Positions 13,311 to 45,588 of a DNA stretch of 64,000 nucleotides are shown here, in pieces (positions within the stretch are counted from its first letter, which is position 1; each line of letters opens with the position of its first letter). Where the stretch lies: the NCBI GenBank assembly GCA_036004685.1, contig DASYRE010000023.1, forward strand, positions 4,305 through 68,304, read 5' to 3'. The DNA comes from Candidatus Polarisedimenticolia bacterium. Lineage in GTDB: Bacteria > Acidobacteriota > Polarisedimenticolia > Gp22-AA2 > AA152. The translations under genes were made by a program, and so were the position numbers. The notes beneath the pieces are model-generated. The model was not told the origin of the DNA. It saw only the letters and a program-made list of their open reading frames with translations, and searched no databases.

Positions 13311-13677
13311 GCCTCCCTGAGAAAAGCTTCGCCGATTCGTCAGCAAGTACGTCCCGAGATTCCGAAAGTTGCATGCATGACGACATCCCAATCGTTCAGA
13401 TCTGGAACATGGCTGGAAAACCCCCGAGGCCCCCTCCCGGGGAAATAGACGCCCGGGGGAGAGAACATCCGACCGTGAGAGCCGTATACGACACCGATCC
13501 GTTCAAGGCGCCGGAGATCCGTTCAAGGCACGCGGCGCGGCGCGCGGTGGGATCCTGCCGATCGCCCGGCCGTCACTCTCTCAAGGAGAGCCATTCCCGA
13601 TGCTCTACCCTCGATGTCCTGGTCGCGCCGTCCTCCTCCCCCGACTCGCCCGTCCCTGCGAAGGGGAGGCCGGGATC

Positions 13678-17415: not shown

Positions 17416-17525
17416 CCAGACCTCCAACGTCGATTGAATGAGCGTCATCTTATAGCACACCGCGCCCCGCGGGGGCAAAGCCGGAGAGGGACCTCCGCGA
17501 ACCCGGGATGCGCGCCGTCCGGGGT

Positions 17526-17554
17526 TTGCACCCCCGTGGAACATCTGCTAGCAT
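17526..17554 (+). promoter_or_regulatory. Putative sigma70-type promoter of the tig-clpP-clpX-lon operon (-35 TTGCAC, 17-nt spacer, -10 TAGCAT)
   Basis: TTGCAC 17526-17531 and TAGCAT 17549-17554, ~80 nt upstream of tig ATG (17637). Confidence 0.35.
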
Positions 17555-17636
17555 CCGAAGCCTCTCCGGAGTGATGCGTCCGGGACCTCCCCACGAACAA
17601 AAGCCGAGGCCCTCCCAGCACAGTCAGGGGCGCGCG

Positions 17637-18920: not shown

Positions 18921-18924
18921 CTCA

Positions 18925-19509
18925 ATGCCGCTTGTGCCGATGGTTGTTGAGCAAACCAACCGGGGCGAGAGAGCCTACGACATCTACTCGCGATTGCTCA
19001 AAGACAACATCGTATTCATCGGCAGCGGGATTGACGACAGTCTCTCGAACCTGGTAATTGCTCAGCTCCTGTACCTGGAAGCGGAAGACCCCGAGAAAGA
19101 CATACACCTTTACATCAATAGCCCGGGCGGATCGGTGACGGCCGGTCTGGCCATATACGACACGATGCAGTTCATCAAGCCGGACGTGTCGACGATCTGC
19201 ATCGGCCAGGCGGCGAGCATGGCGGCGGTCCTGCTTGGGGCCGGCACGACGAAGAAGCGCTTCGCGCTCCCGAACTCGAGGATCCTGCTGCACCAGCCGA
19301 TGGGGGACTTCTCGGGCCAGGCCACCGACGTGGACATCCACGCCAAGGAAATATTGCGGATTCGGGAACGGTTGAACGATATCATCCGGATTCACACGGG
19401 CCAGACGAAGGAGAAGATCGAGCGGGACACGGATCGGGACTACATCATGACGGCGGCCCAGGGTCTGGAGTACGGAATCATCGACCAGGTGATCGCGAAG
19501 CGGGACTGA
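18925..19509 (+). CDS. clpP: ATP-dependent Clp protease proteolytic subunit
   Basis: 194 aa. Catalytic triad context GQAASMAA (Ser), …LLHQP…(His), …D…; [17 protein letters not shown] block. RBS GGGAGGG upstream. Starts 5 nt after tig stop. Confidence 0.95.
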
Positions 19510-19539
19510 ACGGGACCCAAGGAGAAGCGGAGAAGGCGG

Positions 19540-20778
<1,239 letters not shown>

Positions 20779-20784
20779 AAACCG

Positions 20785-23208
20785 ATGACCCAGCCCGTCC
20801 TTCCTGGACAACACGAGAAGGTCGAACGTCTTCCGCTCGTCCCGCTCCGGGACGTGGTGGTTTTCCCCTACACGATGATCCCGTTCGTCGTCGGCCGCAA
20901 GACGTCGCTCACCGCGGTCGAGCGCGCTCTGGAGACCGACAAGAAGCTGTTCCTCTCGACCCAGCGCGACGCCCGGACCGACGAGCCGAAGCCCGACGAG
21001 ATCAACTACGTCGGGACGGTCGTCAACGTCGTCCAGAGCCTGAAGCTCCCGAACGGGAACATCAAGCTCCTCGTGGAAGGCGTCAGCCGCGGCAAGGTGC
21101 TCGACATCCAGGAAGCCGACGGCTATTTCGTCACGACGCTCGAGCCGATCGACGTCAAGCCCGAGATGACTCCCGAGATGGAAGTCGAGATGGGGAAGGC
21201 GGTCTCGCTGTTCGAGAAGTACGTCAAGCTCAGCCCGAACCTCCCCTACGAGACGATGATCTCGACGATCCGCGTCTCGGAGCCGGGGCGCCTCACCGAT
21301 ACGATCGCCGCCCACCTGCAGGTGGGCGTCGAAGAGAAACAGAACCTCCTCGAGACCTTCGATCCGAAGGAGCGCCTGACGATCCTGGTGGAGCTCCTGG
21401 AGGGGGAGATCGAGAAGCTGCGGGTCGACCGCCGGATCCACCAGCGCGTGAAGAAGCAGATGGAGCGGGCGCAGAAGGAGTACTACCTCAACGAGAAGAT
21501 CAAGGCGATCCAGCAGGAGCTGGGGCGCAAGGACGAGCGAGGCAACGAGATCGAGGAGCTCAAGGAGAAGATCGAGGCCGCCAAGATGCCGAAGGAGGCC
21601 CACGAGAAGGCGATCCAGGAGCTCAAGCGCCTCGAGGTCATGCCGCCCGTCTCCGCCGAAGCGACCGTCTCGAGGAACTATCTGGAATGGCTCCTCGCGG
21701 TCCCCTGGACCAAGAAGACGAAAGAGAACCGCGACATCGATCGCGCCGAGAAGATTCTCAACGCCGACCATTACGGGCTGGAGAAGATCAAGGAGCGCAT
21801 CCTGGAGTTCCTGGCGGTGCGCCGGCTCGTCCGGAACGTCAAGAAGGGGTCGATCCTCTGCTTCGTCGGCCCGCCCGGCGTCGGGAAGACGTCGCTCGCC
21901 CAGAGCATCGCGCGCGCCACCGGACGGCGGTTCGTGCGCCTGTCGCTCGGCGGCGTCCGGGACGAGGCGGAGATCCGCGGACACCGTCGGACCTACATCG
22001 GCGCCTTCCCGGGACAGATCATCCAGATGATGCGCAAGGCCGGGACGCGGAACCCGGTGTTCCTGCTCGACGAGGTCGACAAAATGAGCATGGACTTCCG
22101 CGGTGACCCCTCGGCGGCCCTGCTGGAGGTCCTCGATCCGGAGCAGAACTCGACGTTCGTGGATCACTATCTCGACACCGAGTTCGACCTGACCCAGGTG
22201 ATGTTCATCGCCACGGCGAACGTGCTGCATCCCGTGCCGGCGGCCTTGAAAGACCGGATGGAAGTCATCCGCCTCGCCGGATACACCCTCAACGAAAAGA
22301 TCCGCATCGCCAAGCAGTTCCTCATCAACAAGCAGCTGGAGGCTCACGGCCTCCAACCGAAGAGCATCACCTTCGAGGACGAGGCGATCCGCGACGTCAT
22401 CGAGAACTACACGCGTGAAGCCGGGGTGAGGAACCTCGAGCGGGAGATCGCGTCGATCGCCCGGAAGCTCGCCCGCCGCGTCGTCAAGGAGGGAAGGAAC
22501 TACGAGCACGTCGTGAAGTCGGGGGAGATAACGGACTTCCTGGGCGTGCCCCGCTACCGGCCGAAGGACCAGGAGAAGGCGAAGAAGAGCGAGATCGGGG
22601 TCGCCACCGGCCTGGCCTGGACGGAGGTCGGAGGCGAGATCCTGATGACCGAGGCGACGCTCATGAAGGGGCGCGGCAAGATCACGATCACCGGGAAGCT
22701 GGGAGACGTCATGCAGGAATCGGCTCAGGCGGCGCTCAGCTACGTCCGCTCCCGCGCCGAGAGCCTGGGGATCGACGACGAGTTCCACAAGCTGTACGAC
22801 ATCCACATCCACGTTCCCGAGGGGGCCATCCCGAAAGACGGGCCTTCCGCGGGGATCACGATCGCGACCGCCCTGGCATCGCTCCTGACGAGGACGCCGG
22901 TCCGCAAGGAAGTGGCGATGACGGGGGAGATCACGCTCCGGGGGCAGGTCCTGCCGATCGGCGGGGTGAAGGAGAAGGTGCTCGCGGCGCACCGCCTCGG
23001 CATCACCACCATCATCCTGCCGCGCGACAACGAGAAAGACCTCTCGGAGATCCCCGAGGACATCCAGAAGGAGCTCGAATTCCGTCTGGTCGAGAGCATG
23101 GACGAAGTCCTCAACATCGCCCTGGAAAAGGAGCCCAAGGGAACTCCCCCCATCGAAAAGATCGAGAAGGGGTTTGACAAGAGCCTTCCCGACAGCTCCG
23201 TTCATTAG
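20785..23208 (+). CDS. lon: Lon protease (LonA)
   Basis: 807 aa. LON N-domain, AAA+ Walker [10 protein letters not shown], Walker B LLDEVDK, C-terminal protease domain with catalytic Ser in [10 protein letters not shown] and Lys downstream. Confidence 0.95.
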
Positions 23209-23268
23209 GTTGTCCTGAAGCCACATTCCCAGACATGTTCTCATGCGTCCCGCCCGATGCGGTGAGCC

Positions 23269-23871
23269 GTGAGGGTAGTCACCTGCGAATTCCTGGTGGG
23301 AGCCGCTGTTCCGCGAGACTTTCCGCCCGCGACGATTCCTGAGGTCGCCTTTCTCGGTCGCTCCAACGTCGGAAAGTCGAGCTTGATCAACGCACTCTTG
23401 GGCCGGCGCGGGCTGGCCCGCACCAGCAGGACGCCGGGCCGGACGAGGCAGGTGAATTTCTTCCGGGTGAACGACGCCTGCTTGTTCGTGGACCTTCCCG
23501 GGTACGGATTCGCCCGCGTTCCGAAGGCGACGCGGGAGGAGTGGAAGGTCCTCGTGGAAGCCTTCTTGGATCGCCGGCCCCCGGAAAGGCTGGCGCTGCT
23601 CATCGTGGACGCCCGGCACTCCCCGTCGCCGCTCGACCGGGAGATGCGGAACTGGCTCGAGGACCGGAGAATGCCCTATCGGATCGCGGCCACGAAATGC
23701 GATAAGCTTAGCGCGAACGAACGGAACAGGAGTCTCAAAACCCACCTCAAGGAAATCCACCGACCGGATCTGCTGATCCCATGCTCCGCGGAGACGCGGG
23801 AAGGGATTCCCCGGATCTGGGCCGCCATCGACGGGATGCTGAATGAAACGACACCCTCGCCCGGAACGTAA
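23269..23871 (+). CDS. engB: Ribosome biogenesis GTP-binding protein EngB/YsxC/YihA
   Basis: GTG start. G1 [10 protein letters not shown]3 DLPGYG, G4 TKCDK. ~200 aa as typical. Confidence 0.85.
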
Positions 23872-23920
23872 CCCGAACTCCAACCCCTCCGCCCGTCCCG
23901 TCCGTTACGCGGACGACGAA

Positions 23921-25276
<1,356 letters not shown>

Positions 25277-30535: not shown

Positions 30536-33466
30536 CTACCTGCGGCGGAGCAGGTCTTGATAGAGGTTCTGCAGGGGAGGGTTGTCGGGGTGGCGCGCCA
30601 GGCTGTCGCGGGCGAAGGCGAGGGCGTCGTCGGAGCGCTTGAGGCGCAGGTAGCTCAGGACGATCCCCAGATCGGCGCGCGCCGATACCGGGCCCCCGAT
30701 CTCCCGGGCCTTCTGGAAAGCGGCGAGGGCGCGCTCCGTGTCGCCGGTGCGCAGGCGTACGTTCCCCAATCCGAGGTAGAGATCGGCGTTCGGCGACGCG
30801 GCGGCCGCCTTGTCGAGCACGGCCCCGGCCTCATCCCACCGCCCTAGATCCATCAGAGTCAGTCCGAGGTTCAGCGAGAATCGCGCATCGGCCGGGTTCA
30901 GCTCGACGGCCCGCCGGAAGTGCCGGTAGGCCTCCTCCTTCCTGCCCGCCTCCGAGTCGAGCGCGCCGAGAAGGTTGTGATATTCGTCGATGCGCTCGCT
31001 TTTCCGCAGACCGGCCTCCAGGGTCGGGCGGAGCGCTTCGAGCCTTCCTTCCCGACTCAGGTACCCGACCAGCTGCTTCGCAGCGCCCACCAGCGTCGGA
31101 TCGGCGCGCAGCGCCTCCCAATACAGCCGCTGCGCCTCCTCGGCGCGCCCCCCCGCTTCAGCGAGCTGTCCCTCGGCGGCGCTCCGGATCGCCGGCGCTT
31201 CTTTCAGCCCCTTCCGGTGGTCGTCCAGAAACGCCTTCCCTCCCGCCGGGTCGCCCAGCTCGGTGGAAAGCTGGACGTACCAGAGGACCGAATCGGCCCC
31301 CATCCCTTCCGGCACTTCCTTCCATCCCTGTTCCAGCGCCCGCCTCGCTTCCTGCTTGCGCCCCAGCGCGTCGTACGATTCCGCGAGCATGGCGTAAGTC
31401 TTCGGCAGCTTCTCGCGGCGGTTCGCTTCCAGCAGCTCGGCGATCGCCTGCGGATAGTCTCGCTGATTCAAATAATAGGTCGCCATGTTCCGGTGATACG
31501 TCACGGGCGTGTCTTCCGGCGCGGCGGCCGAGGAGGCGGCGGTTCCGGGCGCCGCTTCGACTCGCGGCGAGCTTTTCTCCGAACCAGGCTTCGCTGGCTC
31601 CGATTCGGGATTCCCGTCGTTCCCGCCGACGTACCCGAGGGCGCGAAGCTGGGCCATCATCTCGGCGGAAACCTCTTCCGAGCTTCCCGAGGCTTCCTCC
31701 GTCTCCCGCGGCGCCCCCACTCCTTCGTAGGTCGGAACGTGCTGCGGCGGGAATTTCGCGAGAAAGGCCGGATCAATCGCCTCTGCGAGGACCGCGCCCG
31801 GCATGTCGGAGGGCACCGGCAGCCCGAGCAGGGCCAGGACCGTCGGAGCGACGTCGAACAGTGTCACCGAGTCCTGCCGGGCACGCCGGGCGGCGCCCGG
31901 ACCGCTCAGGACGAAGATTCCCTCCTCGCGGTGCCACTCCACCGGCTGGTCCACGGTGAAGGGAAGAATCCCCTCCATCCGGCGCGCGCCCGCCTTGAAT
32001 CCATGATCCGAGAGGATCATCACCGTCGTCTCGGGCCCCGCCCTGCGAATCAAATCTCCCAACAGCTCGTCCTGATAGACGTAATACTCGGTCACGACGC
32101 GGTGGAACTTCTGAAACTCCTCCGCGCTCACCATCGCCATCTTTGGCGGCAAGTAATGCTGGAAACGATGCCCGACCAGGTCGATCCCCTCGAAGTACAC
32201 GGCGGTCAGATCGAATCGCCGGCCCGCGAGATCCAGCGCAATCGCCTGGTAATTGCGCGCCGCGGTCAGGATCTTGATCAGCAGGCCGACGGGATCCTGC
32301 GGCGGGATATTCTCCTTCTTGGTTTTCGGGGCGGCCGGCGGATGCGCGATCCAGTCCAGCCCCGCCTGGTATTCGGCCGGCGTCACGTCGGCGAAGCGCC
32401 TGACTTCCTCGAGGGACACCTGGCGCGGCAGCGCCAGCTTCGGCAGGATCTCCTTGAGGTAGCCGGGCGGGTAGGTGTGGCCGGGACGGCCAGCGAGGCC
32501 TTCGCGGTTCGGAAGCATGCTCAAGGCCGCCACGCGATCCGATACGAGAATTCCGTCCAGATGATCGGCCGGATACGAGGCCCACCACGCCACGATGCCG
32601 GCTGAGCGCCCCAGGTCGCTCGCGATGTTCCAGAGCGACTTCACCTTCCGATAACGGCTGCCGATCGGAACCTTGTTCCCGGTCGCCTTCTCGATCACGC
32701 TGAAATCCGCCACGCCGTGCAGGTCGGGTCCTTTGCCGGTCGCGACCGTCGTCCAGAGTAGCGGGGAAATCATCGGATTGTAGGAACGCATTCCGGCCCG
32801 GACTCCCGAATCGACCAGCCGCTTCATGGCGGGCATCCGGCCGGCGCCCACCAGAGGATCGATGATCTCCCAGTCCGCCGCGTCGAGCCCGATGACCAGC
32901 AGGCGAACGCCGGTGCGCCGCGAGCGCCCCGCGTAGTCGCTCCGCAGGAGATTGCGGGTGAAATCCGAGGGCAGCCGGACCTCCCATTTCAGGTTCGACA
33001 GCCGTATCCCCGCCGCCTCCAGCGCCTGCGTCATGGAATGGGAGAGGGGAGGTTCGATGGACGCGTGGTCGAGAAACTCGGCCGCCGAGCGACCCGAGAG
33101 GTTCCTCTTCAGGGCCTCGGAAGCGGCTTCTTCCAGCAACGCATGAAACCCTTCGTGCCGTTTCGCGGCGGTTGTGGAAAGAGCCGCCGGATCGACCTCG
33201 AAATGGAAGCTCAGCTGGACGCTGCCTCGGATTCCCTCCTTGCTCGAGACCGGCAAGGGCGGCAAGGCGCCGTCGCCCCTTTCGGAGAGGATCGCCACCG
33301 GGGTGAAAGGCGAGACGAGATGTATTCCCGGACGAAGGACGCGACGACCGGCGACGCCGAAGTGCTCCTGCGGAACCCGTACGATTCCGCGACCGGTGGT
33401 CCAAGCAACGCCGAGCGAGAGAGTGAGAATTCCGATGATCACAAAGGGGAGGAATCGCCGGCTCAT
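30536..33466 (-). CDS. Membrane-anchored alkaline-phosphatase-superfamily (type I phosphodiesterase/nucleotide pyrophosphatase-like) protein fused to C-terminal TPR repeats
   Basis: 976 aa. N-terminal TM (FLPFVIIGILTLSLGVAW). AP-core motifs (LLVIGLDAADWEII…, …SPLLWTTVATGKGPDLHGV…, …MILSDHGF…). Then ≥8 TPR units at C-terminus. Confidence 0.7.
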   Translation of the reverse strand: MSRRFLPFVIIGILTLSLGVAWTTGRGIVRVPQEHFGVAGRRVLRPGIHLVSPFTPVAILSERGDGALPPLPVSSKEGIRGSVQLSFHFEVDPAALSTTAAKRHEGFHALLEEAASEALKRNLSGRSAAEFLDHASIEPPLSHSMTQALEAAGIRLSNLKWEVRLPSDFTRNLLRSDYAGRSRRTGVRLLVIGLDAADWEIIDPLVGAGRMPAMKRLVDSGVRAGMRSYNPMISPLLWTTVATGKGPDLHGVADFSVIEKATGNKVPIGSRYRKVKSLWNIASDLGRSAGIVAWWASYPADHLDGILVSDRVAALSMLPNREGLAGRPGHTYPPGYLKEILPKLALPRQVSLEEVRRFADVTPAEYQAGLDWIAHPPAAPKTKKENIPPQDPVGLLIKILTAARNYQAIALDLAGRRFDLTAVYFEGIDLVGHRFQHYLPPKMAMVSAEEFQKFHRVVTEYYVYQDELLGDLIRRAGPETTVMILSDHGFKAGARRMEGILPFTVDQPVEWHREEGIFVLSGPGAARRARQDSVTLFDVAPTVLALLGLPVPSDMPGAVLAEAIDPAFLAKFPPQHVPTYEGVGAPRETEEASGSSEEVSAEMMAQLRALGYVGGNDGNPESEPAKPGSEKSSPRVEAAPGTAASSAAAPEDTPVTYHRNMATYYLNQRDYPQAIAELLEANRREKLPKTYAMLAESYDALGRKQEARRALEQGWKEVPEGMGADSVLWYVQLSTELGDPAGGKAFLDDHRKGLKEAPAIRSAAEGQLAEAGGRAEEAQRLYWEALRADPTLVGAAKQLVGYLSREGRLEALRPTLEAGLRKSERIDEYHNLLGALDSEAGRKEEAYRHFRRAVELNPADARFSLNLGLTLMDLGRWDEAGAVLDKAAAASPNADLYLGLGNVRLRTGDTERALAAFQKAREIGGPVSARADLGIVLSYLRLKRSDDALAFARDSLARHPDNPPLQNLYQDLLRRR

Positions 33467-33750: not shown

Positions 33751-33904
33751 TCTCCTCCACGGGACGCGCTCGAAGGTTCCTTGGGGTCCATCATCCCTCA
33801 TCGGACTCGACACATGCACCTCGGAGCCTATATTGCAATTGCGGCCCTCCGTAAGAGGTGAAAAGCCTCGGGGCCCGCCATCACATCTTGTTCTTGAGGT
33901 GCTC

Positions 33905-36088
33905 ATGAAAGAGCCGCGCGTGAACGAATGCATCCTCAATTCGGGACTCCTGGACGCGGACGGATTGGCGCGAGTCCTGGAAATCAAGGCCCGGGACGGA
34001 GGCTCCCTGGCGCGGATCGCGGCGAACCTTGGGCTCGCCGAGGAGGAGTCCGTCAGCCGGGCGATCGCAACCGGCCTTGGTCTCGAATACAAGGACCTGA
34101 CCGAAGCGTCTTCCCAGCCACCCTCCGAAGTCACGCTGCCGGCGGAATTCTGTGTCAAGCGCCTGGTCGTGCCGCTGGGACTGAAGGATGGAACGCTGCA
34201 GGTGGCGATGGCGGATCCTCTCGATCATTCCACCATTCAGGACGTGGAATTCCGGACCAGCAAGTGGGTGGCCGTGGTGATGGCGACCGAAAGCGCGATC
34301 CTCAGGGTGCTCAAGGCCTCGTCGCTCCAGCCGGTCGAGTCCACCGCCATGTCGTACGACATGCTCGCGAGCGTGAATCCCGATGGGGAGGTCGAGGTCT
34401 CGCAGGAGGATCAGTGCGAGGTGATCGATCCAACCCAGCTGGCGAAGGACGTGAAGCTTCCGCCGATCGTCCGGTTGGTGAACGTCGCCCTGACCAACGC
34501 GGCGAAGGCAGGGGCGAGCGACATCCACATCGAGCCGCACGAGCACGGCCTGTTGATCCGACACCGCATCGACGGGATTCTGCAGGACGTGCTGCAGATT
34601 CCCAAGCACCTCCAGCAGCCGGTGATTTCCCGGATCAAGATCATTTCCGGGATGGACATCGCCGAGCGCCGCAAGCCGCAGGACGGCCGAAGCCGCCTGA
34701 GGGTCGACAAGCGACGAATCGATCTCCGCGTCTCCTCCCTCCCCACCAGCCACGGCGAGAAAATCGTCGTCCGCTTTCTCGACAGCGCCAACGCCAGCGT
34801 CAGCATGGATGGAATCGGATTCGCTCCCGATCTACGCCGGCGATTCGAGGAGATGCTGACGCGGCCCCAGGGCATGATCCTGGTCACGGGGCCGACCGGA
34901 AGCGGCAAGACGACGACCCTCTATGCCGCGTTGAACCGGGTGAAATCGCACGCCAAGAACATCATCACCGTCGAGGATCCCATCGAGTACCAGCTTGCGG
35001 GAATCAGCCAGGTGCAGATCAATCCGAAGGCGGGGGTCACCTTCGCGAGCGGACTGCGTTCCATCTTGCGCCAGGACCCGGACATCGTGTTGCTCGGCGA
35101 GATCCGTGATCGCGAAACTGCCCAAATCGCGCTCGAGGCCGCGCAGACGGGGCACCTGCTCCTGAGCACGATGCACACGAACGACGCTCCCTCCTCGATC
35201 ACGCGGCTCCTCGATCTGGGGATCGAGCCGTTCATGATCGCCGCGTCCCTGATCGGCATTCTGGCCCAGCGCCTGGTGCGCAAACCCTGCCCCGATTGCA
35301 TCATCGCGCGCGCGCCCTCGCCCGAGATCCTGGAGAAGTTCACCGTCACGAGGCCGGATCCCTCCTACAAAGCAGGACAGGGTTGCCCGAACTGCGGACA
35401 GACCGGCTTCCGGGGCCGCACCGCGATCCACGAGTTCCTGGTGATCAACGACGAGCTCCGTGATCGCATCGCCCGCGGGGCCGCAGAGCACGAGACGAGG
35501 GCCGCGGCGCGGCGCGCTGGGATGCGGACGCTGATGGAGGACGGGGTGATGAAGGCCGGGGACGGGCTCACGACGCTCGAGGAAGTCCTCCGAGTGATCC
35601 CCCCCGACGAGGTAAAGGCGACGACGACCTCCCAGGCCGCTCCGAGGACGGGACCCGCGATCGACGACTCCTCGACCACTCTGCCCGAGGGCGAGAAAGT
35701 GAGGGTCCTGGTAGTCGAGGACAGCCCCACGGTGGTCACGGTGGTCAAGTATTTCCTGGAGAACGAAGGGTTCGAGGTGCTGGTCGCCGCCAACGGAGTC
35801 GAAGGCTTGCGGATCGCGAGAGACTCGGCTCCACACGTCGTCGTCAGCGACCTCAACATGCCGGAGATGGACGGTATCGCGCTGGTGCAGGAGCTGCGCG
35901 CCGACGCCCGTACCCGGGGCGCGGGAATCATCTTGCTCACTTCCGACGACAGCGTGGAAACCGAAGCTCGTGGGCTGGCGACCGGCGCCGACGATTACCT
36001 GGCCAAACCGGTCGAGCCGAAGCGGCTGGCCGCGCGGATTAAGACAATCTTAGCCCGAAATCGGACCCGCCAAGCGGAGAAGGTGTGA
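33905..36088 (+). CDS. GspE/PilB-type secretion ATPase (T2SS/T4P family) with C-terminal response-regulator receiver domain
   Basis: 727 aa. N-terminal T2SSE_N-like domain. Walker A VTGPTGSGKTTT, Asp box, Walker B LLGEIRD, His box. Tetracysteine CPDC…CPNC. Then canonical REC: VLVVEDSPT…, phospho-acceptor VVVSDLNMPEMDG, LLTS, AKP. Stop overlaps next gene start (ATGA). Confidence 0.85.
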   Translation: MKEPRVNECILNSGLLDADGLARVLEIKARDGGSLARIAANLGLAEEESVSRAIATGLGLEYKDLTEASSQPPSEVTLPAEFCVKRLVVPLGLKDGTLQVAMADPLDHSTIQDVEFRTSKWVAVVMATESAILRVLKASSLQPVESTAMSYDMLASVNPDGEVEVSQEDQCEVIDPTQLAKDVKLPPIVRLVNVALTNAAKAGASDIHIEPHEHGLLIRHRIDGILQDVLQIPKHLQQPVISRIKIISGMDIAERRKPQDGRSRLRVDKRRIDLRVSSLPTSHGEKIVVRFLDSANASVSMDGIGFAPDLRRRFEEMLTRPQGMILVTGPTGSGKTTTLYAALNRVKSHAKNIITVEDPIEYQLAGISQVQINPKAGVTFASGLRSILRQDPDIVLLGEIRDRETAQIALEAAQTGHLLLSTMHTNDAPSSITRLLDLGIEPFMIAASLIGILAQRLVRKPCPDCIIARAPSPEILEKFTVTRPDPSYKAGQGCPNCGQTGFRGRTAIHEFLVINDELRDRIARGAAEHETRAAARRAGMRTLMEDGVMKAGDGLTTLEEVLRVIPPDEVKATTTSQAAPRTGPAIDDSSTTLPEGEKVRVLVVEDSPTVVTVVKYFLENEGFEVLVAANGVEGLRIARDSAPHVVVSDLNMPEMDGIALVQELRADARTRGAGIILLTSDDSVETEARGLATGADDYLAKPVEPKRLAARIKTILARNRTRQAEKV

Positions 36089-36735
36089 GAAGCGAGGTCC
36101 CTTCAACAGAAACGGCCGCTCGTGGCCATCGATGGATTCACCTCCTGGCGATCGCCGTCTGGCTGGGAACCATCGTCTGGGGCATGGGGATCTTGCTGAG
36201 ATTCGCCTCGACGCCCGGCGATCCGGGTCATCCGCCGCTGCAATGGCCGGAAGGGAGCCGGATCCCAGCCGCGCACCGCCCGGCCTTGCTGATGGCCATT
36301 CATCCCCGCTGTCCCTGCACCCGCGCCAGCATCGAAGAGCTCCAGCAGGTGATGGCCAGGTGCCGCGGGCAAATGGAGGTGCACTTGATCGTCGTGGTGC
36401 CTTCGGCCGTCAGCGTGAGTTGGCTTGACACGGAGCTCGAACGGGAGGCGACCGCGATTCCGGGCGTCAACACCTACATCGATCGGGGCGGTATCGAAGC
36501 GCGCCGATTCGGCACCGCCACGTCGGGGCACACGCTCGTGTACAACGCCAGCGGGCACCTGGCGTTCAGCGGCGGGATCACACTGGCGCGCGGGCATGCA
36601 GGCGACAACTCGGGTCAGGACGCCGTCGTGGAGGCCATCCGCGAGGGAGGGCCGGCCCACGCCACCCACTCCGTCTACGGTTGTCCTCTTCACGATCCCC
36701 CGCCCGGCGCTCGGGCTTCGGAGTCCTACCGATGA
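36085..36735 (+). CDS. Membrane-anchored thioredoxin-fold (TlpA/ResA-like) protein with atypical C-P-C motif
   Basis: 216 aa. One N-terminal TM ([22 protein letters not shown]). [22 protein letters not shown] resembles WCxxC region of TlpA-like redoxins but with CxC. Later YGCPLH. ATGA overlaps at both ends couple it to flanking genes. Confidence 0.55.
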
Positions 36736-39700
36736 GCGAGGCGGCGGGCGTCTCCATGACGGAGGCTTCGATGACGAGAGCCTCGGTGTTGTTCCAGGAG
36801 CACCAAGGCCGAATCCTCCGTCGCACCGATCGCATCTTCGCGGGTCTCCTCGCCTTCGAGTGGCTCGCGGGCATCATCGCCGCCCTGTTCATCTCGCCTC
36901 GAACCTGGGCGGGGCAATTCAGTAAGCCCCACATCCATGTCTGGGCAGCGGTGTTCCTGGGCGGAGCCATCGTCGTTTTCCCGATCGTGCTCGCCCTCTG
37001 GCAGTCGGGCCGTCCCTTCACGCGGCACACCATCGGCGTCGGCCAGATGCTTTTCGGGGCCCTCCTAATCCATCTCACCGGCGGCCGTATCGAAACGCAC
37101 TTCTTCGTGTTCGGCTCCCTGGCCTTCCTGGCCTTCTACCGGGATTGGCGGGTCATTCTCTCGGCGACCCTGGTGGTCGTCGTCGACCACTTCGCCCGAG
37201 GACTGCTTTGGCCTCAATCGGTCTATGGTGTGCTCGTCGCCAGCCCCTGGCGGACGATCGAGCACGCGGGCTGGGTGGTTTTCGAGGACATCTTTCTCAT
37301 CGCTTCCTGCGCGCAAGGAGTGGAGGAAATGCGGCAGATCGCCGAGCGCCAGGCGCGCCTCGAGACCGTCAACGACGAAATCGAGCGTCAGGTGGAAGAC
37401 CGAACCGCCGCGCTCCGGACGAGCGAGGAGCGCTTCCGTTTGCTGGCCGAGTGCTCCCCCGTAGGGATCTACCAAACGGACGCCGCCGGACACCGCGTCT
37501 ACGTGAACGCCCGGTGGGCGGAAATCGCCGGGCTGGCCTTGTCGGAGGGACTGGGCGACGGGTGGCTCGGAGCATTGCATCCGGAGGATCGCGGCCGCGT
37601 GCTCTCGGAATGGAAAGCCTGCAGCGCCGCCGGGAGAGACATCAATCACGAATTTCGCCTGCAGCGCAGCTCCGGAGAGATTCGCTGGGTCCACTCCTTC
37701 GCCTCCCCGGTGCGCACCTCCTCCGGAGAGGCCACCGAGTACGTGGGCATCGTCGAGGACATTACGCGCCGCAAGGAAATCGAGGGCGAGCTGGAACGCG
37801 CCAAGGAAGAGGCCGAAGCGGCCGCCCGGATGAAGTCCGAATTCCTCGCCAACATGAGCCACGAGATCCGCACCCCGATGAATGCGGTGATCGGCATGAC
37901 CGGGCTGCTGCTGAGCACCGACCTGACGAAGGAGCAGCTGGAGTACGCCGAGACGGTCCGGCGTTCGGGAGAAGCCCTGCTGACCATCATCAATGACATC
38001 CTCGACTTCTCCAAGATCGAGGCGGGACGGCTCCATCTCGAGGTGATCGACTTCGATCTTCCGGTGCTCGTCGAAGAAGTGGTCTCCCTGCTCGCCGAGC
38101 GCGCCCAGGCGAAGAACCTCGAGCTGGTCTGCGTCGTGCATCACGGGGTTCCCTCGGCGCTGCGCGGAGACCCCGGGCGATTGCGCCAGATTCTCTTGAA
38201 CCTGGTGGGAAACGCCGTCAAGTTCACGGCTCAAGGCGAGGTCGTCCTGAGGGTCAAGTCGCTGGATCCGGATACCGATCCCTGTCCGGTCCGATTCGAG
38301 GTCTCGGACACCGGCATCGGCATGCCCGCCGAAGTGATCGATGGGCTCTTCCGGCCTTTTTCGCAGGCCGACAGCTCGACCGCGCGCAAATTTGGAGGCA
38401 CCGGTTTGGGGCTGGCCATATCCCGGCAGCTCACCGACCTGATGGGAGGCGCAATCGGCGTCGAGAGCCAGCCAGGCAAGGGAAGCACGTTCTGCGTGAC
38501 CTTGCGCCTGGAGAGGCAGCCGGAAGGGGCCGGTATCCTCCCGGCGCCTCGGGACAGCCTGCGCGGGCTACGAATCCTGAATGTCGATGACAACCGGTCG
38601 AATCGCCAGCTTCTTTCCGTCCTGGCTGGTTCGTGGGGCATGAACTCCGACGAGGCCGAGAGTGGCCCCGCGGCGTTGGATCTTGCGCTCGCCGCGGCTC
38701 TCGAAGGCCGCCCGTACGACGTGGTGGTCCTCGACATGCAGATGCCCGGCATGAACGGCCTCGAACTCGCCCGCAAGCTCAAAGCCGATCCGCGCACCGC
38801 CGCGCTTCGTCTCGTGATGCTGACCTCCGTCGGTCTCCGAGGCCAAGGCGAGGCTTCCCGGGCGGCCGGCATCTCCGGTTATCTGACCAAGCCGGTACGG
38901 CAGTCGCAGCTCTACGACTGCCTGGCGACGGTGATGAGCTCGAGCCTGATCAGGGGAGCAGGGGGCAAAGCCTCCATGCCGCTGGTCACGCGTCACAGCC
39001 TGCGAGAGGCGAAGGCGCGCCGGCAAAAACGGATTCTCGTCGCGGACGACAACGAAACGAACCAGCTCGTGGCGGTCCGCATGCTGGGCAAGCTCGGCTT
39101 CCAGGCGGACGTGACGGCCAACGGGCTGGAGGCCGTGGAGGCTCTCACGCGAATTCCGTACGGGCTCGTGCTGATGGACTGCCAGATGCCGGAGATGGAT
39201 GGCTATGCCGCGACGCGCGCCATCCGCCAGGCGGAAGAGTCCAAAGGAATTCACACTCCCATCATTGCCATGACCGCCCACGCGATGCAGGGGGACCGGG
39301 AGAAGTGCCTGGAAGCCGGCATGGACGACTACCTGGCCAAGCCCGTCCGCTCCGAGGAGCTCGCCAAAACGATCGAGCGATGGCTCCGGCCCGAGGCGGG
39401 GGACGAGGACCGCGAGACGGCGGGCACGACCCAGACCACCAACAAGAAAGTCAAGGCTCGCTCGAAGCGGACGAATGTCCAGAGCTCCCTGCCGCAAGAG
39501 GCTCCGCTGGATGTGGCCATATGGGACGAGCTAAGGGAGGCGGGCACCGCCGATGAGGACGGATTCCTGCGCCTGCTGGTCGGGAAGTTCCTGGAGGAGG
39601 CGCCGGCGTGTCTCGCCGCGCTCTCGGAAGCTTCCGCCGGCGGCGATGCCGCCGCTCTCGGTCGAGCGGCACATCGGTTGAAGGGCGCCGCCGCCACCCT

Positions 39701-39872
39701 CGGCGCGACCCGAATGGCCTCGATGTCGATGGAGCTGGAGAAGCTGGGGCGAGCCGGCTCCGTGACCGGGAGCCAGGGGTGGATCACGCTTCTCGAGGCA
39801 GAGCTGGGCCGCGTCCGCAAAGCCTTGTCCAAGGAGCTGGACGGAGCCGGGACGCAGCGGAAGACGGCCTGA
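36732..39872 (+). CDS. Hybrid sensor histidine kinase: multi-TM sensor / PAS / HisKA / HATPase_c / REC / REC / Hpt
   Basis: 1046 aa. ~6 TM helices with conserved His ([13 protein letters not shown]). PAS ([18 protein letters not shown]…). H-box [13 protein letters not shown]1/G2 boxes ([24 protein letters not shown]). Two REC domains ([13 protein letters not shown]; [13 protein letters not shown]). Hpt with [11 protein letters not shown]. Confidence 0.85.
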
Positions 39873-42800
39873 TGCGGAACGCGGCCGATCGAGAGAGGGT
39901 TTCCCGGGGGGAGTGGCTCGTCGGTGGCGGCGAGATGGCTAAGACGATCAAGGCCAAGGATTGGTCCAAGACTCCTCTGGGTCCCATGGATTCCTGGCCG
40001 CAGAGCCTGCGGACCACCGTCAGCCTCGTGCAGGCCTCCAACTCGCCGATCTCCCTCGCCTGGGGCCCCGGCCACGTCCAGATCTACAACGATGGCTACT
40101 GGCCCATCTGCGGGGCCAAGCATCCTGCGTCGATGGGCCAGGACTTCCGCGAGTGCTGGGCTTCCGCCTTTCCCGTCATCGGGGAAGCCTACGCGACCGC
40201 CTGGTCGGGGAAGAGCGCCTACCTGGAAAAAATGCGGATGTTCCTGGACCGCTATGGCTTTCTGGAGGAGACGTGGTTCACGTTCTCGTTCAGCCCTATC
40301 ACGGACGAATCGGGCTCGGTCGGCGGCCTCTTTCATCCGGTTACCGAGATGACCAGCCAGATGCTTACGGAGCGACGCACCAAGACGCTTCGTGAGCTCG
40401 CCAGCCGCGGGGCCCGGGCCCGGACCACGGAAGAGGCGTTCGCGCTGTCGGCTCAGGTGCTTGCCGAATCCGACCTGGATTTGCCGTTCGTCTTGTTCTA
40501 TCTGGTGGAGTGGGACTCACGCCGCGCCCGGCTCATCGGCCAGACAGGACTGGAGCCTGGAACCGACGTGAGCCCGAAGCTCATCGATCTGCGCTCGCCG
40601 GTCAATCGTCCCTGGCCCGTGGAGGAGGTGACGCGCACGGGACTGCCGTGCCGGATCGACTCCACGGGGACGCTGCTCGCTGGCCGGCCAGTCGGTCCTT
40701 ACCCTGAGATTCCGAAATCGGCGTTCGCCCTGCCCATTCGCCAGCCGGGCACCGACCAGCCCGCCGCCGTCATGGTGGCGGGCGTCAGCTCGCGGCTGCC
40801 CATGAACGAGCCCTACCGCGGCTTCTACGACCTGATCGGCGCGGCCGTGGGTACGGCCTTGGCCAATGCGCGGGCCTACGAGGTGGAGCGCAAGAGAGCC
40901 GAGGCGCTGGCCGAAATTGATCGGGCGAAGACGGCGTTCTTTTCCAACGTGAGTCACGAATTCCGTACGCCGATCACGCTGATCCTGGCCCCGCTCGAGG
41001 ACGAGCTCGCCGAACGCCGGGACCCCTTGCCGGCCGGGCGCCGCGAACGGCTGGAGACGGCGCACCGCAACAGTCTCCGGCTCCTGAAGCTGGTGAACAC
41101 CCTGCTGGATTTCTCGCGCATCGAAGCGGGGCGGATTCAGGCCACGTACGAGCCGACGCATCTGGGAGAGGAGACGGCGGAGCTTGCCAGCGCGTTTCGC
41201 TCGGCGGTGGAAAGAGCCGGACTGCAGCTCACGGTCGATTGCCCTCCCTTGCCCGAGCCCGTCTACGTGGACCGGCAGATGTGGGAGAAGATCGTCCTGA
41301 ATCTCGTCTCGAACGCTTTCAAACACACCTTCCAGGGCGGCATCGAGATCAAGCTGCGGTGGCGCGAGAATGGCGCGGAGCTTTCCGTCCACGATACCGG
41401 AGTGGGCATTGCAACGGAGGAGCTGCCGCGGATCTTCGAGCGCTTTCATCGCGTCAAGGGAGCCCAGTCACGGTCGCACGAAGGGACCGGGATCGGCCTG
41501 GCGCTCGTGAAGGAGCTGGTTCTACAGCACGGGGGAGAAGTCCGAGTCGAGAGCCAGGAGGGCAAAGGCAGCGTCTTCACGGTCGCCATCAAGGCGGGGC
41601 GCGCTCACCTTCCGGCGGAGCGCCTGCAGACCGATCCCAGGCCCGCCTCCCCGGGGACCGGGGCGGCCGCCTACGTCGAGGAAGCTCTGCATTGGCTGCC
41701 CGGCGCGCCGGCCGAGATTGCCATGCCATCCGCCGGAGCGAGGCCGGGCGCCGCTCCCGGCCAATCCGCGGCGGCCGCTTCCCAGCACCGATCGAGCGTT
41801 CTCTGGGCCGACGACAACACCGACATGCGTGAATACGTCCGGCGGCTGCTGTCGCAGGATTACGACGTGATCGCGGTCGCCGACGGCGTCTCGGCGCTCG
41901 AGATGGCGAAGAAACAACGACCCGACATCGTTCTGACGGACGTCATGATGCCGCGGCTGGACGGATTCGGCCTTCTCCGGGAGCTGCGAGCCGATCCCTC
42001 GATGCGGACCGTTCCGGTCATCCTTCTCTCGGCGCGCGCCGGGGAGGAGGCGACTCTCGAAGGCCTCCAATCGGGCGCCGACGATTATCTCGTCAAGCCC
42101 TTCTCCGCTCGCGAGCTTCAGGCCCGGGTGCGGACGCACCTCGACATGAGCCGCGCCCGCCTCGAATGGGCCAGGCGCCTGGAGCAGGCGAACCAAGAGC
42201 TGGAGGCCTTCAGCTATTCCATATCGCACGATCTGCGAACGCCGCTACGTCACATCCAGGGATTCGTCGAGCTGCTCCGGGAAGAGGCCGCTTCGGCTCT
42301 CGACGAGAACGGGAGTCGATATCTGGGCAAGATCGACGCTTCCGCGAAGAGCATGGCGAAGATGATCGAGGACCTGCTTGCGTTTTCGCACATGGGCCGC
42401 CGCGAGATGCGCGATACCAGGGTGGATATGGGCCGCCTGGTCTCCGAAGTGAAGAGCGAGCTTCAGGAGGAGGCGAGAGGACGCCGGATCGTGTGGAACA
42501 TCGGACCCATGCCGGAGGTCCGGGGAGATGCGGCGCTGCTCAAGCTGGCCGTGACCAATTTGCTCGCCAACGCGATGAAGTACACGCAGAATTGTGAGGA
42601 AGCCCGCATCGAGATCGCCTCGGAGGCTCCCCGGAACGAAGTCGTGATCTCCGTGCGGGACAACGGCGTCGGCTTCGATCCGCGGTACGCCCATAGGCTG
42701 TTCGGCGTCTTCCAGCGGCTTCACGAAACGAAGGAATTCGAAGGCACCGGGATCGGTCTGGCGAACGTGCGGCGGATCGTCAGCCGGCACGGTGGAAGGA

Positions 42801-42922
42801 CGTGGGCCCACGGAGAGGTCGGCCGGGGCGCCGCGTTCTTCTTTTCACTTCCCAAGGCGTGGGACGAGGAGGAAGGACCCGCGGCCGCGGACCGGCTCTC
42901 CGAAGACCTGGCAGGAGCATGA
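39872..42922 (+). CDS. Cytoplasmic dual-core sensor kinase: PAS-like / GAF / HisKA-HATPase / REC / second HisKA-HATPase
   Basis: ATG overlaps upstream TGA (TGATG). First kinase core SHEFRTPITLI…HDTGVGI…GTGIGLALV. REC with IVLTDVMMPRLDG. Second core ISHDLRTPLRHI…DNGVGF…GTGIGLANV. Start could alternatively be MAKTIK at ~39937. Confidence 0.8.
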   Translation: MRNAADRERVSRGEWLVGGGEMAKTIKAKDWSKTPLGPMDSWPQSLRTTVSLVQASNSPISLAWGPGHVQIYNDGYWPICGAKHPASMGQDFRECWASAFPVIGEAYATAWSGKSAYLEKMRMFLDRYGFLEETWFTFSFSPITDESGSVGGLFHPVTEMTSQMLTERRTKTLRELASRGARARTTEEAFALSAQVLAESDLDLPFVLFYLVEWDSRRARLIGQTGLEPGTDVSPKLIDLRSPVNRPWPVEEVTRTGLPCRIDSTGTLLAGRPVGPYPEIPKSAFALPIRQPGTDQPAAVMVAGVSSRLPMNEPYRGFYDLIGAAVGTALANARAYEVERKRAEALAEIDRAKTAFFSNVSHEFRTPITLILAPLEDELAERRDPLPAGRRERLETAHRNSLRLLKLVNTLLDFSRIEAGRIQATYEPTHLGEETAELASAFRSAVERAGLQLTVDCPPLPEPVYVDRQMWEKIVLNLVSNAFKHTFQGGIEIKLRWRENGAELSVHDTGVGIATEELPRIFERFHRVKGAQSRSHEGTGIGLALVKELVLQHGGEVRVESQEGKGSVFTVAIKAGRAHLPAERLQTDPRPASPGTGAAAYVEEALHWLPGAPAEIAMPSAGARPGAAPGQSAAAASQHRSSVLWADDNTDMREYVRRLLSQDYDVIAVADGVSALEMAKKQRPDIVLTDVMMPRLDGFGLLRELRADPSMRTVPVILLSARAGEEATLEGLQSGADDYLVKPFSARELQARVRTHLDMSRARLEWARRLEQANQELEAFSYSISHDLRTPLRHIQGFVELLREEAASALDENGSRYLGKIDASAKSMAKMIEDLLAFSHMGRREMRDTRVDMGRLVSEVKSELQEEARGRRIVWNIGPMPEVRGDAALLKLAVTNLLANAMKYTQNCEEARIEIASEAPRNEVVISVRDNGVGFDPRYAHRLFGVFQRLHETKEFEGTGIGLANVRRIVSRHGGRTWAHGEVGRGAAFFFSLPKAWDEEEGPAAADRLSEDLAGA

Positions 42923-45588
42923 GTCACCCGGCGGAAGCGAGCCGACCCGAAAGACTGCTGCGGATTCTTCACCTGGAGGACGATCCGAATGACGCGGAGC
43001 TGATCCGGAAGGCTCTGCCGAAAGCGGGGCAGGGCCTCTTGGTCGAGCAGGTGTCGACACGAAGCGAGTTCGCGCGGCTCCTCGGCCGGGGAGCAGTCGA
43101 CCTAATCCTCTCGGATTTCGCGCTGCCCGACTTCGACGGTCTTTCCGCCCTCAAGCTGGCGCGCGAAAGGTTCCCGGACGTTCCCTTCATCCTCGTGTCG
43201 GGAACGATCGGTGAGGAAGCCGCCATCGAAAGTCTGCGTAGTGGCGCGACGGACTACGTTCTGAAGCACCGGCTGTCCCGCCTGGGGCCTGCGGTCTCCC
43301 GCGCCCTCGAAGAAGCTGCGGAGCGCAGAAAGCGCGTCGACGCGGAAGAAGCGCTGCATCGGGAACAGCGATTGTCGCGCTTGGAGGAGGCCCGGCGCCG
43401 CCGGAGCGAGGAGCGGCTTGCGGCGCAGTTCGACATGGCTCTTGCTCTGGCCAAGTCGACCTCCCTGGCCGAAGCGACGCCGCGCATTTTGAAGTCGGTC
43501 TGCGAGGTACTCGAGTGTGAATATGCGGCGCTCTGGGAGGTGGACCGCCAGGCCAAAGTTCTGCGCTGCGTGGAGATCTGGCACCCCGCGCGGATCGGCT
43601 TCCCCCAGTTTGAGGAGCTGAGCCGACGGACGACCTTTGCTCCCGGCGTCGGGCTGCCCGGAAGGGTCTGGGCCAGCGGCAAGCCGGCTTGGATCCAGGA
43701 CGTCGTGGAAGACGCCAACTTCCCGCGGGCCCCGGCGGCGAGGCGCGAAGGGCTGCATGGGGCCTATGGCCTGCCCATCGTGCTGCAGGGGGAAGTCCTG
43801 GGCGTTATGGAGTTTTTCAGCCGGGAGATCCGGGAGCCGAGCAGCGATCTGGTCGCGATGCTCACTACGGTGGGAAGTCAGATCGTCCAGTTCATCGAAG
43901 GGAAGCACCGCGAACAGGAGCTGGTGGAACGGGTGCGTCTGACCGCCCTTGGCGCGGACATCGGCATGTCCCTGACCCAGCCCGGCACCCTGCGCGACCG
44001 GTTGCAGCGCTGCGCCGCGGCCGTCGTGAAACACCTCGACGCGGCCTTCGCGCGCATCTGGACGCTCGACCAAGCCGGCCAAGTCCTGGAGCTCCAAGCC
44101 AGCGCGGGCCTCTACACGCACCTGGATGGCGCCCACAGCCGGGTGCCCGTGGGGAAGTACAAGATCGGCCTCATCGCCGAAGAGCGCCAGGCCCACTTGA
44201 CGAACGACGTCCTCAATGACCCCCGAGTCGGGGATAGAGAATGGGCGGCGCGCGAGGGGATGGCCGCGTTCGCCGGTCATCCTCTCATCGCGCGGGATCA
44301 TCTGGTCGGAGTGATGGCTCTATTCGCGCGGCACCCCTTGAGCGACTACGTCTTGACGGCCCTGGCGACCATCGCCGACAACGTCGCGCTGGGTATCGAA
44401 AGCGAGAAAATCGAGGCGGAACGCGAGAAGCTGGAGATCCAGTTCCGGCAGGCCCAGAAGATGGAAGCCGTGGGGCGTCTCGCCGGCGGAGTCGCCCACG
44501 ACTTCAACAACCTGCTGAGTGTCATTCTCGGCTATGGCAACCTCATGCTGGCGCGATCGGAGCGCAGCGAAGGAGATCGCAAGAGCCTACAGGAAATGTG
44601 CAAGGCCGCCGAGCGCGCCGCAGGCTTGACGCGCCAGCTTCTCGCCTTCAGCCGCCAGCAGGTTCTGATCCCGGAGATCTTCGATGTTCGCGAGACCGTC
44701 AAGGAACTGTCGAAAATGCTGGGCCGGCTGATCGGCGAGGACGTCGAGCTGCAGACGCATTGTTGCGAGGAGCCCTGCCACGTATTGGCCGATCGTGGGC
44801 AGGTGGAGCAAGTCATCATGAACCTCGTGGTGAACTCGCGCGATGCCATGCCTCAGGGAGGAAAGCTGTGCGTCGAAGTCCGGAGCGTCGGAGTGGCTGC
44901 GCCGATTCCGCACGATCACGTGACCATGCCGGCAGGACGCTACGTGATGCTGGAAGTCATCGATACCGGAACCGGCATGGATTCCGCCACCCAAAACCGC
45001 GTTTTCGAGCCGTTCTTCACGACCAAGGAGCAGGGAAAGGGGACCGGCCTGGGACTCGCGACGGTGTACGGAATCGTCAAGCAGAGCAATGGCTACATCT
45101 GGGTGCACAGCGAGCCTGGCAAGGGAACGAAGTTCACAATCTATCTGCCGCTTTCCCAAGGGCAGGCGAAGGAGGCGATTCCCGTGCCGCGCGGCGCGCT
45201 CCTGCGCGGAACCGGCACGATCCTCCTGGTGGAAGATTCCGAAGCTCTGCGCCGTCTGGCCCGGCACGTGCTCGAGGATACCGGCTACACGGTTCTGGCC
45301 GCCTCCAGCGGCGAAGAAGCGGAACGTCTGGCAGCCGGCCATTCCGGCCGGATCGATCTGCTTCTCGTCGATGTCGTCATGCCTGGAATGAACGGCCGAG
45401 AACTGGCGGAGCGCTTGTCATCGTTGCGCTCCGAGATGCAGATCCTCTACATGTCGGGCTACACGAACGACGCGGTCTTGCAGCACGGGATCGCGTCGGA
45501 GGCGGTGAACTTCATCCAGAAACCGTTCACTCCGAGCGTCATGACGCGCAAAGTGCGCGAAATTCTGAAGCAGAATCCCTCCTTCTGA
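42919..45588 (+). CDS. Hybrid sensor kinase: REC / coiled coil / GAF / GAF / HisKA / HATPase_c / REC
   Basis: ATGA overlap with upstream gene. N-terminal REC ([13 protein letters not shown]), two GAF-like regions, H-box [13 protein letters not shown]-boxes ([15 protein letters not shown]), C-terminal REC ([13 protein letters not shown]). Confidence 0.85.

Follow-up and report, generated by a model that had tools for sequence, protein, structure and literature searches.

A PilB/GspE-class motor ATPase fused to a receiver (REC) domain is encoded by the first gene of a five-gene operon in the 64-kb stretch of Candidatus Polarisedimenticolia DNA analyzed here (contig DASYRE010000023.1; the whole stretch is called the window below). 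We propose that the REC domain of this protein (protein 1, or ATPase-REC) takes a phosphoryl group from a histidine phosphotransfer (Hpt) domain and that this alters the output of the motor, likely on a type IV pilus; we give this proposal as a whole a probability of roughly 0.6. A sensor-kinase relay probably switches the motor directly, because across the family the ATPase-REC gene almost always adjoins a gene encoding an Hpt domain. An earlier reading of the same DNA, made without database searches (the original prediction), had suggested a dedicated phosphorelay whose output is a secretion- or pilus-class ATPase, and with a canonical REC, intact ATPase motifs and a near-invariant Hpt neighbor this is still the best reading of the locus. 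Three parts of the proposal are inferred from sequence: the Hpt-to-REC phosphotransfer, the sign of its effect, and the identification of the driven machine as type IV pili.

Protein 1 consists, by Pfam, of an MshEN domain (1.3e-16), a T2SSE ATPase core (2.5e-135) and a C-terminal REC (2.1e-27), and its sequence is 100% identical to that of P0001, a protein of a Candidatus Polarisedimenticolia metagenome-assembled genome. The core scores 451 bits against a cut-off of 24.9 for the T2SSE superfamily (PF00437) and has the Walker A, Walker B/Asp and His boxes of that superfamily; the REC scores 95.9 bits against a cut-off of 30.2 for PF00072, with all switch residues in place. Among 120 homologues, Walker A (G329-T336, with K335), the Walker B residue E399 and the His-box residue H417 are kept in 119-120, and the tetracysteine C462/C465/C494/C497 is present in every one. 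The receiver is conserved to the same degree: E605, D606, D649, T679, Y698 and K701 are kept in 117-120 of the 120, and D606, D649, T679 and K701 are invariant. The expectation that the C-terminal part would score as a REC is thus borne out by both the Pfam match and the invariance of the canonical residues. Judged by their conservation, both halves of the fusion are under purifying selection as working domains. The tetracysteine zinc motif and the N-terminal MshEN domain also place the protein among assembly-class ATPases as opposed to PilT. The closest solved relatives of its receiver are of the PhoP, PleD and MtrA types, which commonly dimerise on phosphorylation, and one testable model is that REC domains of neighboring protomers would pair.

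A merged reading frame of this kind could in principle be an assembly or frameshift artefact that joins pilB to a response-regulator gene. We give this explanation a negligible probability, because the same fused open reading frame (ORF) is found in 120 of 120 independent clusters. These are the protein clusters closest to protein 1 (52-77% identity), they share the MshEN-T2SSE-REC architecture, and they were drawn from NCBI, JGI, ENA and Logan assemblies; the named sources are Polarisedimenticolia, Vicinamibacterales, Acidiferrales and other Acidobacteriota. The fusion also persists as one ORF in 58 distinct loci, and the gap between core and REC varies from 17 to 262 residues across representatives while the reading frame is kept. 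We found no evidence for an artefact, and these clusters and loci effectively refute it.

The fusion is not rare. In an exhaustive search of 1.84 billion representatives, from which the best 150 clusters at 50% identity were examined, 104 of the 150 combined the ATPase core with a C-terminal REC, so that at least 104 clusters at this identity level carry the fusion. In a crude neighbor-joining tree, the fused cores form large blocks that are largely separate from unfused PilB and GspE. A scan of genome contigs with the whole protein returned mostly unfused PilB/GspE, with fused proteins only in loci L001, L008, L011 and L016. One distant fused representative comes from a Mariprofundaceae metagenome-assembled genome (MAG), and spread beyond the Acidobacteriota is uncertain.

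Several variants of the architecture turned up in these searches. About 13 of the best 150 representatives (P0241, P0244, P0245, P0247, P0249 and others) are around 1000 residues long, contain two tandem T2SSE cores and form their own clade, and in three of the 150 the REC lies at the N-terminus instead. In a Terriglobia variant (L011, 9863-12157; L016, 9866-12268), a double zinc ribbon (DZR) is inserted between core and REC. The DZR-bearing gene of L011 is followed by a hybrid kinase similar to the first kinase of the window operon; that of L016 is followed by a gene for a DnaJ-domain protein, and a PAS kinase, a Ser/Thr kinase-TPR protein and a PP2C phosphatase are encoded nearby.

Existing annotations call the fused proteins 'PilB' or 'ATPase, T2SS/T4P/T4SS family', to which JGI adds a response-regulator label; the ATPase-REC architecture is therefore already on record in databases. 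The original prediction knew of no characterized REC-fused GspE, and we likewise found no description or characterization of a REC-fused PilB or GspE in full-text literature searches or in a 2024 review on PilB control. Papers on Polarisedimenticolia and Acidobacteriota contained nothing on pili.

To see what accompanies the fusion, loci were collected by exact protein look-up and by a metagenome scan with family-specific N-terminal motifs (from a six-sequence alignment), and their six-frame translations were searched with profiles for Hpt, GspF/PilC, secretin, GspG/K/L/C, Che proteins and two products of the window operon, the CPC thioredoxin-fold protein (protein 2) and the hybrid kinase HK1. 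This gave 58 distinct REC-fused loci, 49 of them with enough flank to evaluate. An Hpt domain, counted as adjacent when it lay within 4 kb downstream on the same strand or in an abutting upstream gene, adjoins ATPase-REC in 40 of the 49; in four further loci, an HK1-type kinase is cut by the contig end. The Hpt takes four forms. It may be the C-terminal end of a full-length HK1 orthologue directly downstream of ATPase-REC; a stand-alone 116-residue protein (L081, L086, L089); a CheA-P1-like Hpt of about 130 residues followed by a single-domain REC, as in a large soil subfamily (L103, L112-L158); or part of a REC-Hpt gene that ends in a stop codon overlapping the start of the ATPase gene (L087, L090). 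The conserved unit is thus the ATPase-REC gene with an adjacent Hpt-bearing gene. It is not the five-gene operon that had been taken as the unit, as the closest relative with genomic context has only ATPase-REC and HK1.

In the window, the Hpt belongs to HK1, whose domains by Pfam are a multi-pass membrane N-terminus, PAS, HisKA, HATPase, two REC domains and the C-terminal Hpt; neither of the other two kinases has membrane segments. Its Hpt would be the phosphodonor for the ATPase REC. HK1 is the conserved partner of ATPase-REC: full-length orthologues lie directly downstream of the fused gene in L088 (70% identity), L083 (62%), L082 (59%) and L085 (58%). The best NCBIfam-type matches of HK1 are the BarA, TorS and ArcB models. 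HK2 is soluble and has no Hpt; a 340-residue N-terminus without a Pfam match precedes HisKA, HATPase, REC and a second HisKA and HATPase, and none of the related loci contains a full-length HK2 orthologue. HK3 (REC, GAF, GAF, HisKA, HATPase, REC) has no Hpt either. Its C-terminal half is CckA/LvrB-like, and relatives of this half recur close to ATPase-REC (L090, L086, L088) as well as behind a pair of genes for a 'RedB' protein and a kinase (L091). Of the proposed co-occurrence of the fusion with three kinases, the HK1 part holds up in relatives; HK2 and HK3 are not conserved neighbors and are lineage-specific additions. Their REC domains could feed the Hpt of HK1. The best NCBIfam models for HK2 and HK3 are the Leptospira LvrA/LvrB hybrid kinase pair and CckA, with scores far below the cut-offs (498 against 1200 bits for HK2 and the LvrA type; 271 against 500; 435 against 1000).

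The sequence of events that we propose begins with hybrid histidine kinases that would sense signals: HK1, whose membrane sensor is probably aided by protein 2, and perhaps also HK2 and HK3. A His-Asp-His relay would bring the phosphoryl group to the C-terminal Hpt of HK1, which would hand it on to D649 in the receiver of the ATPase. Phosphorylation of the REC is predicted to change motor output, most plausibly by altering the activity of the hexamer or the way the motor engages a type IV pilus platform whose gene lies elsewhere in the genome.

Protein 2, encoded between ATPase-REC and HK1, has no Pfam or NCBIfam match but has 2364 homologues, of which P0122 (65% identical) and one from Armatimonadota bear the NCBI name 'RedB protein'. 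Throughout the family the motif HPxCPCTRAS is invariant, and so is a third cysteine, C200. An AlphaFold model (pLDDT 89) comprises an N-terminal transmembrane helix and a thioredoxin-like fold, and the best Foldseek match is 3u5r (2.6e-8), followed by DsbE, DsbF, ResA and TlpA-like structures, in agreement with the initial description as a CPC thioredoxin-fold protein. The fold is that of the TlpA/ResA/DsbE-like oxidoreductases, and the motif is CPC (C76-P-C78) in place of the CxxC that these enzymes carry at the N-terminus of helix 1.

A redox input to the motor from protein 2, raised in the original prediction, does not follow from its distribution. In two loci without the ATPase (L091 and, in Chthoniobacterales, L092), a protein 2 family gene overlaps the start of a histidine kinase gene, and the N-terminal membrane domains of these kinases are 60% and 42% identical, respectively, to HK1 residues 1-229. 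Several loci with ATPase-REC and HK1 have no protein 2 at all. Protein 2 is therefore an accessory of the kinase, traveling with the HK1 membrane sensor domain and not with the ATPase. We reject it as a redox regulator of the ATPase, given this pairing with HK1-type kinases in ATPase-free loci; a redox input to the kinase is plausible. The CPC protein and the multi-pass membrane domain of about 230 residues, which belongs to no Pfam family (HK1 1-229), form a module ahead of histidine kinases in L091 (6001-10360), L092 (6001-9206) and the window (36085-37420), in Acidobacteriota and a Chthoniobacterales MAG. This pairing constitutes an uncharacterized sensor module.

The class of the motor can be bounded from several sides. 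Among solved structures, Thermus PilF (8.6e-149), Geobacter PilB (6e-132) and Myxococcus PilB (1e-124) align full-length with residues 2-568, whereas GspE/EpsE chains match the core only (about 1e-118), as do, with far weaker matches, PilT structures (110-130 bits). Protein 1 has the extra N-terminal residues (about 76) of the PilB/MshE type, and the PilB family model covers residues 8-564. It scores 555.9 bits for the PilB equivalog (TIGR02538; cut-off 675.65) and 579.3 bits for the GspE equivalog (TIGR02533; cut-off 630.25). Protein 1 is thus an assembly-class motor of PilB/MshE-type length, by its sequence roughly equidistant from PilB and GspE and an equivalog of neither.

The MshEN receptor of cyclic di-GMP (c-di-GMP) is defined by two 24-residue motifs with a conserved Arg and Gln, and in Vibrio cholerae MshE, R9 and Q32 are reported to be the pivotal residues (PMC12943098). 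In motif 1 of protein 1, R5 is kept and K28 replaces the Gln. Binding of c-di-GMP by the N-terminal domain of ATPase-REC is doubtful, because the pivotal Arg and Gln (allowing R or K at the first position) occur together in just 7 of 120 family members. Motif 2, with S or T as its first residue and G, A or S as its last, is missing both. The N-terminal helices retain the hydrophobic and Gly pattern of the MshEN motifs. Control of the motor appears to have moved from c-di-GMP to phosphorylation.

Two REC-PilZ proteins came to light in this connection. One is encoded in the window at 15714-16634 (-), about 17 kb upstream of the operon (PilZ, 1.2e-14; REC, 3.4e-07, 30.8 bits against a cut-off of 30.2); the other, a REC-PilZ-SpoIIE protein, is encoded directly after ATPase-REC in L108. 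A link to c-di-GMP may now lie outside the motor in such proteins.

The machine that the motor serves has to be read from its neighbors. Type IV pilin genes (N_methyl motif, no T2SSG domain) adjoin ATPase-REC in four loci. In L144 the order on one strand is pilin, pilin, ATPase-REC, Hpt, REC; in L134, L111 and L095, the pilin gene is divergent from ATPase-REC. Two other loci, L087 and L090, have a complete MCP, CheW, CheR, CheW, CheA-REC and CheB cluster (MCP, methyl-accepting chemotaxis protein) beside the fused gene. Pilin and Che neighbors in some members point to pili rather than an unknown secretion module. The proposal of a candidate undescribed secretion module needs correcting on this point: the fusion is widespread, annotated as PilB and accompanied in some relatives by such genes.

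Several observations weigh against our proposal. Pilin adjacency is limited to four loci and Che clusters to two. No GspF/PilC, secretin, GspK, GspL or GspC was found in the 64-kb window or in the flanks of the 58 fused loci, which add up to 575 kb; the identical profile search recovers such genes in all six unfused control loci. Absence of nearby machinery is thus a trait of the whole fused family and not of this window. The core is also as close to true type II secretion GspE as to PilB: the unfused ATPase of L012, 45% identical, sits in a textbook GspC-D-E-F-G-K-L cluster. Finally, no Hpt is found nearby in L016, L105-L107, L108, L122 and L164; L108 has its REC-PilZ-SpoIIE protein and a kinase near ATPase-REC. 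In L105-L107, the position of the Hpt, about 150-1050 nt past the ATPase-REC stop, holds two ORFs that resemble a split phage-type integrase (L106, 3467-4367), which suggests a mobile-element insertion or a rearrangement.

One way to accommodate these points is that protein 1 is a type II secretion GspE gated by phosphorylation, with protein secretion and not pilus assembly as its output. The NCBIfam GspE score is slightly above that for PilB (579 against 556 bits), close unfused relatives such as that of L012 lie in canonical type II secretion clusters, and so do the unfused loci that share the N-terminal motif (L162, L166, L167, L169). Yet both scores fall under their equivalog cut-offs, and the extra N-terminal residues with the full-length alignment to PilB and PilF speak for the other class. 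The structural genes that do adjoin the fusion are type IV pilin-like and lack a T2SSG domain. Chemosensory clusters, known as steering systems for motility, accompany it in two loci, and genes for GspF, D, K, L and C are absent from the surroundings of every fused locus. We consider a secretion motor quite improbable. Alternatively, ATPase-REC could be a free-standing, phospho-controlled hexameric ATPase with some other target, or its REC could chiefly provide the kinases with a phosphate sink or with feedback. Such a role would fit an ATPase whose gene has neither a platform protein gene nor a secretin gene beside it in any of 58 loci, and which has mostly lost the key c-di-GMP residues of its N-terminal domain, fails both equivalog cut-offs and forms a large clade of its own. 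On the other hand, the assembly-ATPase motifs are all strictly conserved, the zinc-binding tetracysteine among them, the protein still resembles PilB and PilF over its full length, and pilin genes adjoin the fused gene, co-directional in L144 and divergent in three loci; a sink would have no need of an intact 560-residue motor. We regard these roles as unlikely and continue to favor a PilB-class motor under relay control.

Compared with PilB and PilF of Geobacter, Myxococcus and Thermus, protein 1 has the same MshEN-type domain, N2 domain and core with Walker A/B, Asp and His boxes and tetracysteine. It differs in its C-terminal REC after a flexible linker, in its score below the TIGR02538 cut-off, in the location of its gene away from pilT, pilC and pilM-Q, and in the poor conservation of the c-di-GMP motif residues. 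MshE likewise has an N-terminal MshEN ahead of the T2SSE core, but the equivalents of its pivotal R9 and Q32 are both present in only the 7 family members mentioned above, and protein 1 has the Arg and a Lys for the Gln.

Response regulators that act on extension motors in trans offer a close functional parallel. In the Synechocystis Tax1 system only phosphorylated PixG binds PilB1 (PMC11181946), and in Xanthomonas the REC-only DrdR binds PilB as well as PilT and increases the ATPase activity of both (PMC13507683). As with these regulators and with PilG/PilH of the Pseudomonas Pil-Chp system, a kinase or chemosensory pathway would lead to a REC that acts on the extension motor, and the relatives L087 and L090 even have a CheA-REC chemosensory cluster as in Tax1 and Pil-Chp; the window, which has no Che genes, does not contain a pilus-type chemosensory system. 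Unlike PixG, DrdR, PilG and PilH, the REC here is covalently part of the motor and no PATAN domain is present, and the neighboring donor is the Hpt of a hybrid kinase, a stand-alone Hpt or a REC-Hpt, which implies a multi-step relay. Phosphorylation control of a pilus motor is thus known in trans; here it would act in cis through a dedicated Hpt donor, across a large family from uncultured Acidobacteriota.

Multi-kinase Hpt phosphorelays with a non-DNA-binding output are known from the Pseudomonas HptB pathway. The window operon resembles this pathway and the BarA/ArcB/TorS-type relays in that REC-bearing hybrid kinases would feed an Hpt and the terminal REC is fused to an enzymatic output; it differs in that this output is a secretion- or pilus-class ATPase, which we did not find described in the literature searched. 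A further likeness, by NCBI homologue label, is to the red operon (redA-G) of Myxococcus xanthus, in which RedC-F are two-component proteins and redB precedes the membrane kinase gene redC (PMC2755868). Protein 2, whose 65%-identical homologue carries the RedB label, likewise directly precedes a membrane histidine kinase gene within an operon of several kinases. An ATPase is missing from the red operon, and redA and redB mutants had no phenotype (PMC2755868).

The operon itself (Table 1) has the layout originally described, with five overlapping + strand ORFs at 33905-45588, and Pfam reproduces the earlier tally of six REC domains, four kinase cores, one Hpt and one membrane sensor. The junctions at 36732 and 42919 (ATGA) and at 39870-39874 (TGATG) are as reported, whereas the first, at 36085, is not ATGA but GTGA, a GTG start with GGAG upstream. 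The only sizeable intergenic gap upstream of the operon contains a sigma-70-like promoter candidate with 10 of 12 matches; it is the sole such site in 12.6 kb against 0.9 expected by chance, and this chance-level occurrence makes it a weak candidate. No convincing terminator was found 3' of the operon, and Rfam, applied to the window and to the 440-nt leader, gave no riboswitch, c-di-GMP element or other RNA family in the 5' region; the single Rfam match in the window is a tRNA at 3744-3825 (+).

Table 1. Positions in the window of the operon genes, their principal domains and the promoter candidate.
Feature	Position	Strand	Basis or remark
ATPase-REC gene (protein 1, 727 aa)	33905..36088	+	ORF and Pfam
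MshEN-type N-terminal domain (aa 1-137; Pfam MshEN 58-137)	33905..34315	+	degenerate c-di-GMP motifs
T2SSE ATPase core (aa 185-563)	34457..35593	+	Pfam
Linker, Pro/Ala/Ser/Thr-rich (aa 564-600)	35594..35704	+	not conserved in family alignment
REC domain (aa 601-713), phospho-acceptor D649	35705..36043	+	Pfam
CPC thioredoxin-fold protein gene (protein 2, 216 aa, membrane-anchored)	36085..36735	+	ORF, AlphaFold, Foldseek
HK1 hybrid kinase gene (1046 aa)	36732..39872	+	Pfam, transmembrane segments
HK1 Hpt domain (aa 949-1030, HRLKG motif)	39576..39821	+	Pfam Hpt 3.5e-17, 62.9 bits
HK2 double kinase gene (1016 aa)	39872..42922	+	Pfam
HK3 hybrid kinase gene (889 aa)	42919..45588	+	Pfam
Sigma-70-like promoter candidate (TCGACA-16-TATATT)	33807..33834	+	sole sizeable intergenic gap upstream of operon

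Around the operon, the absence of secretion or pilus machinery noted for its vicinity extends to the entire window. Pfam scans of the long ORFs with high GC content at third codon positions (GC3) found no GspF/PilC, secretin or other pilus or secretion domain, and no prepilin N-terminal motif was found in its six frames. The other long high-GC3 ORFs encode housekeeping and envelope functions by Pfam, including tig, clpP, clpX, lon, rho, prfA, moeA, an HlyD-ABC exporter and a TonB-type outer-membrane protein. A conserved housekeeping run (tig, clpP, clpX, lon, engB, rho) occupies 17442-25276 (+), and Pfam assigned nothing to two ORFs whose GC3 is coding-like, at 13381-14871 (+) and 16894-17547 (-). 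The operon is immediately preceded, on the opposite strand, by the gene for a protein of about 980 residues that combines SPFH/Band7, type I phosphodiesterase and TPR domains (30536-33466, -). A 30%-identical homologue is encoded upstream of ATPase-REC in L083, there on the same strand (5838-8915, +); this protein may be a recurring neighbor of the fusion.

How response regulators act on the pilus extension motor has been hard to pin down in Pseudomonas, cyanobacteria and Xanthomonas, where the contact is made in trans. A widespread and strictly conserved fusion of REC to a PilB-type ATPase, with an Hpt donor next to it, is independent genomic evidence for direct action of a receiver on the motor, and ATPase-REC with its Hpt offers a compact system for biochemistry and structural work. 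A bolder and rather doubtful extension is that the ATPase-REC proteins are a separate, large clade of signal-gated motors, none encoded together with its own machine, that dock on a pilus platform shared with canonical PilB, or on an unrecognized partner, only when an Hpt relay has phosphorylated them. If true, a kinase network or chemosensory array would directly select the driving motor, and perhaps the pilin that is polymerized, with the receiver having replaced the c-di-GMP input. More generally, the fused family appears to be common in Acidobacteriota of soil and sediment metagenomes and may govern surface behavior in this dominant, poorly studied phylum.

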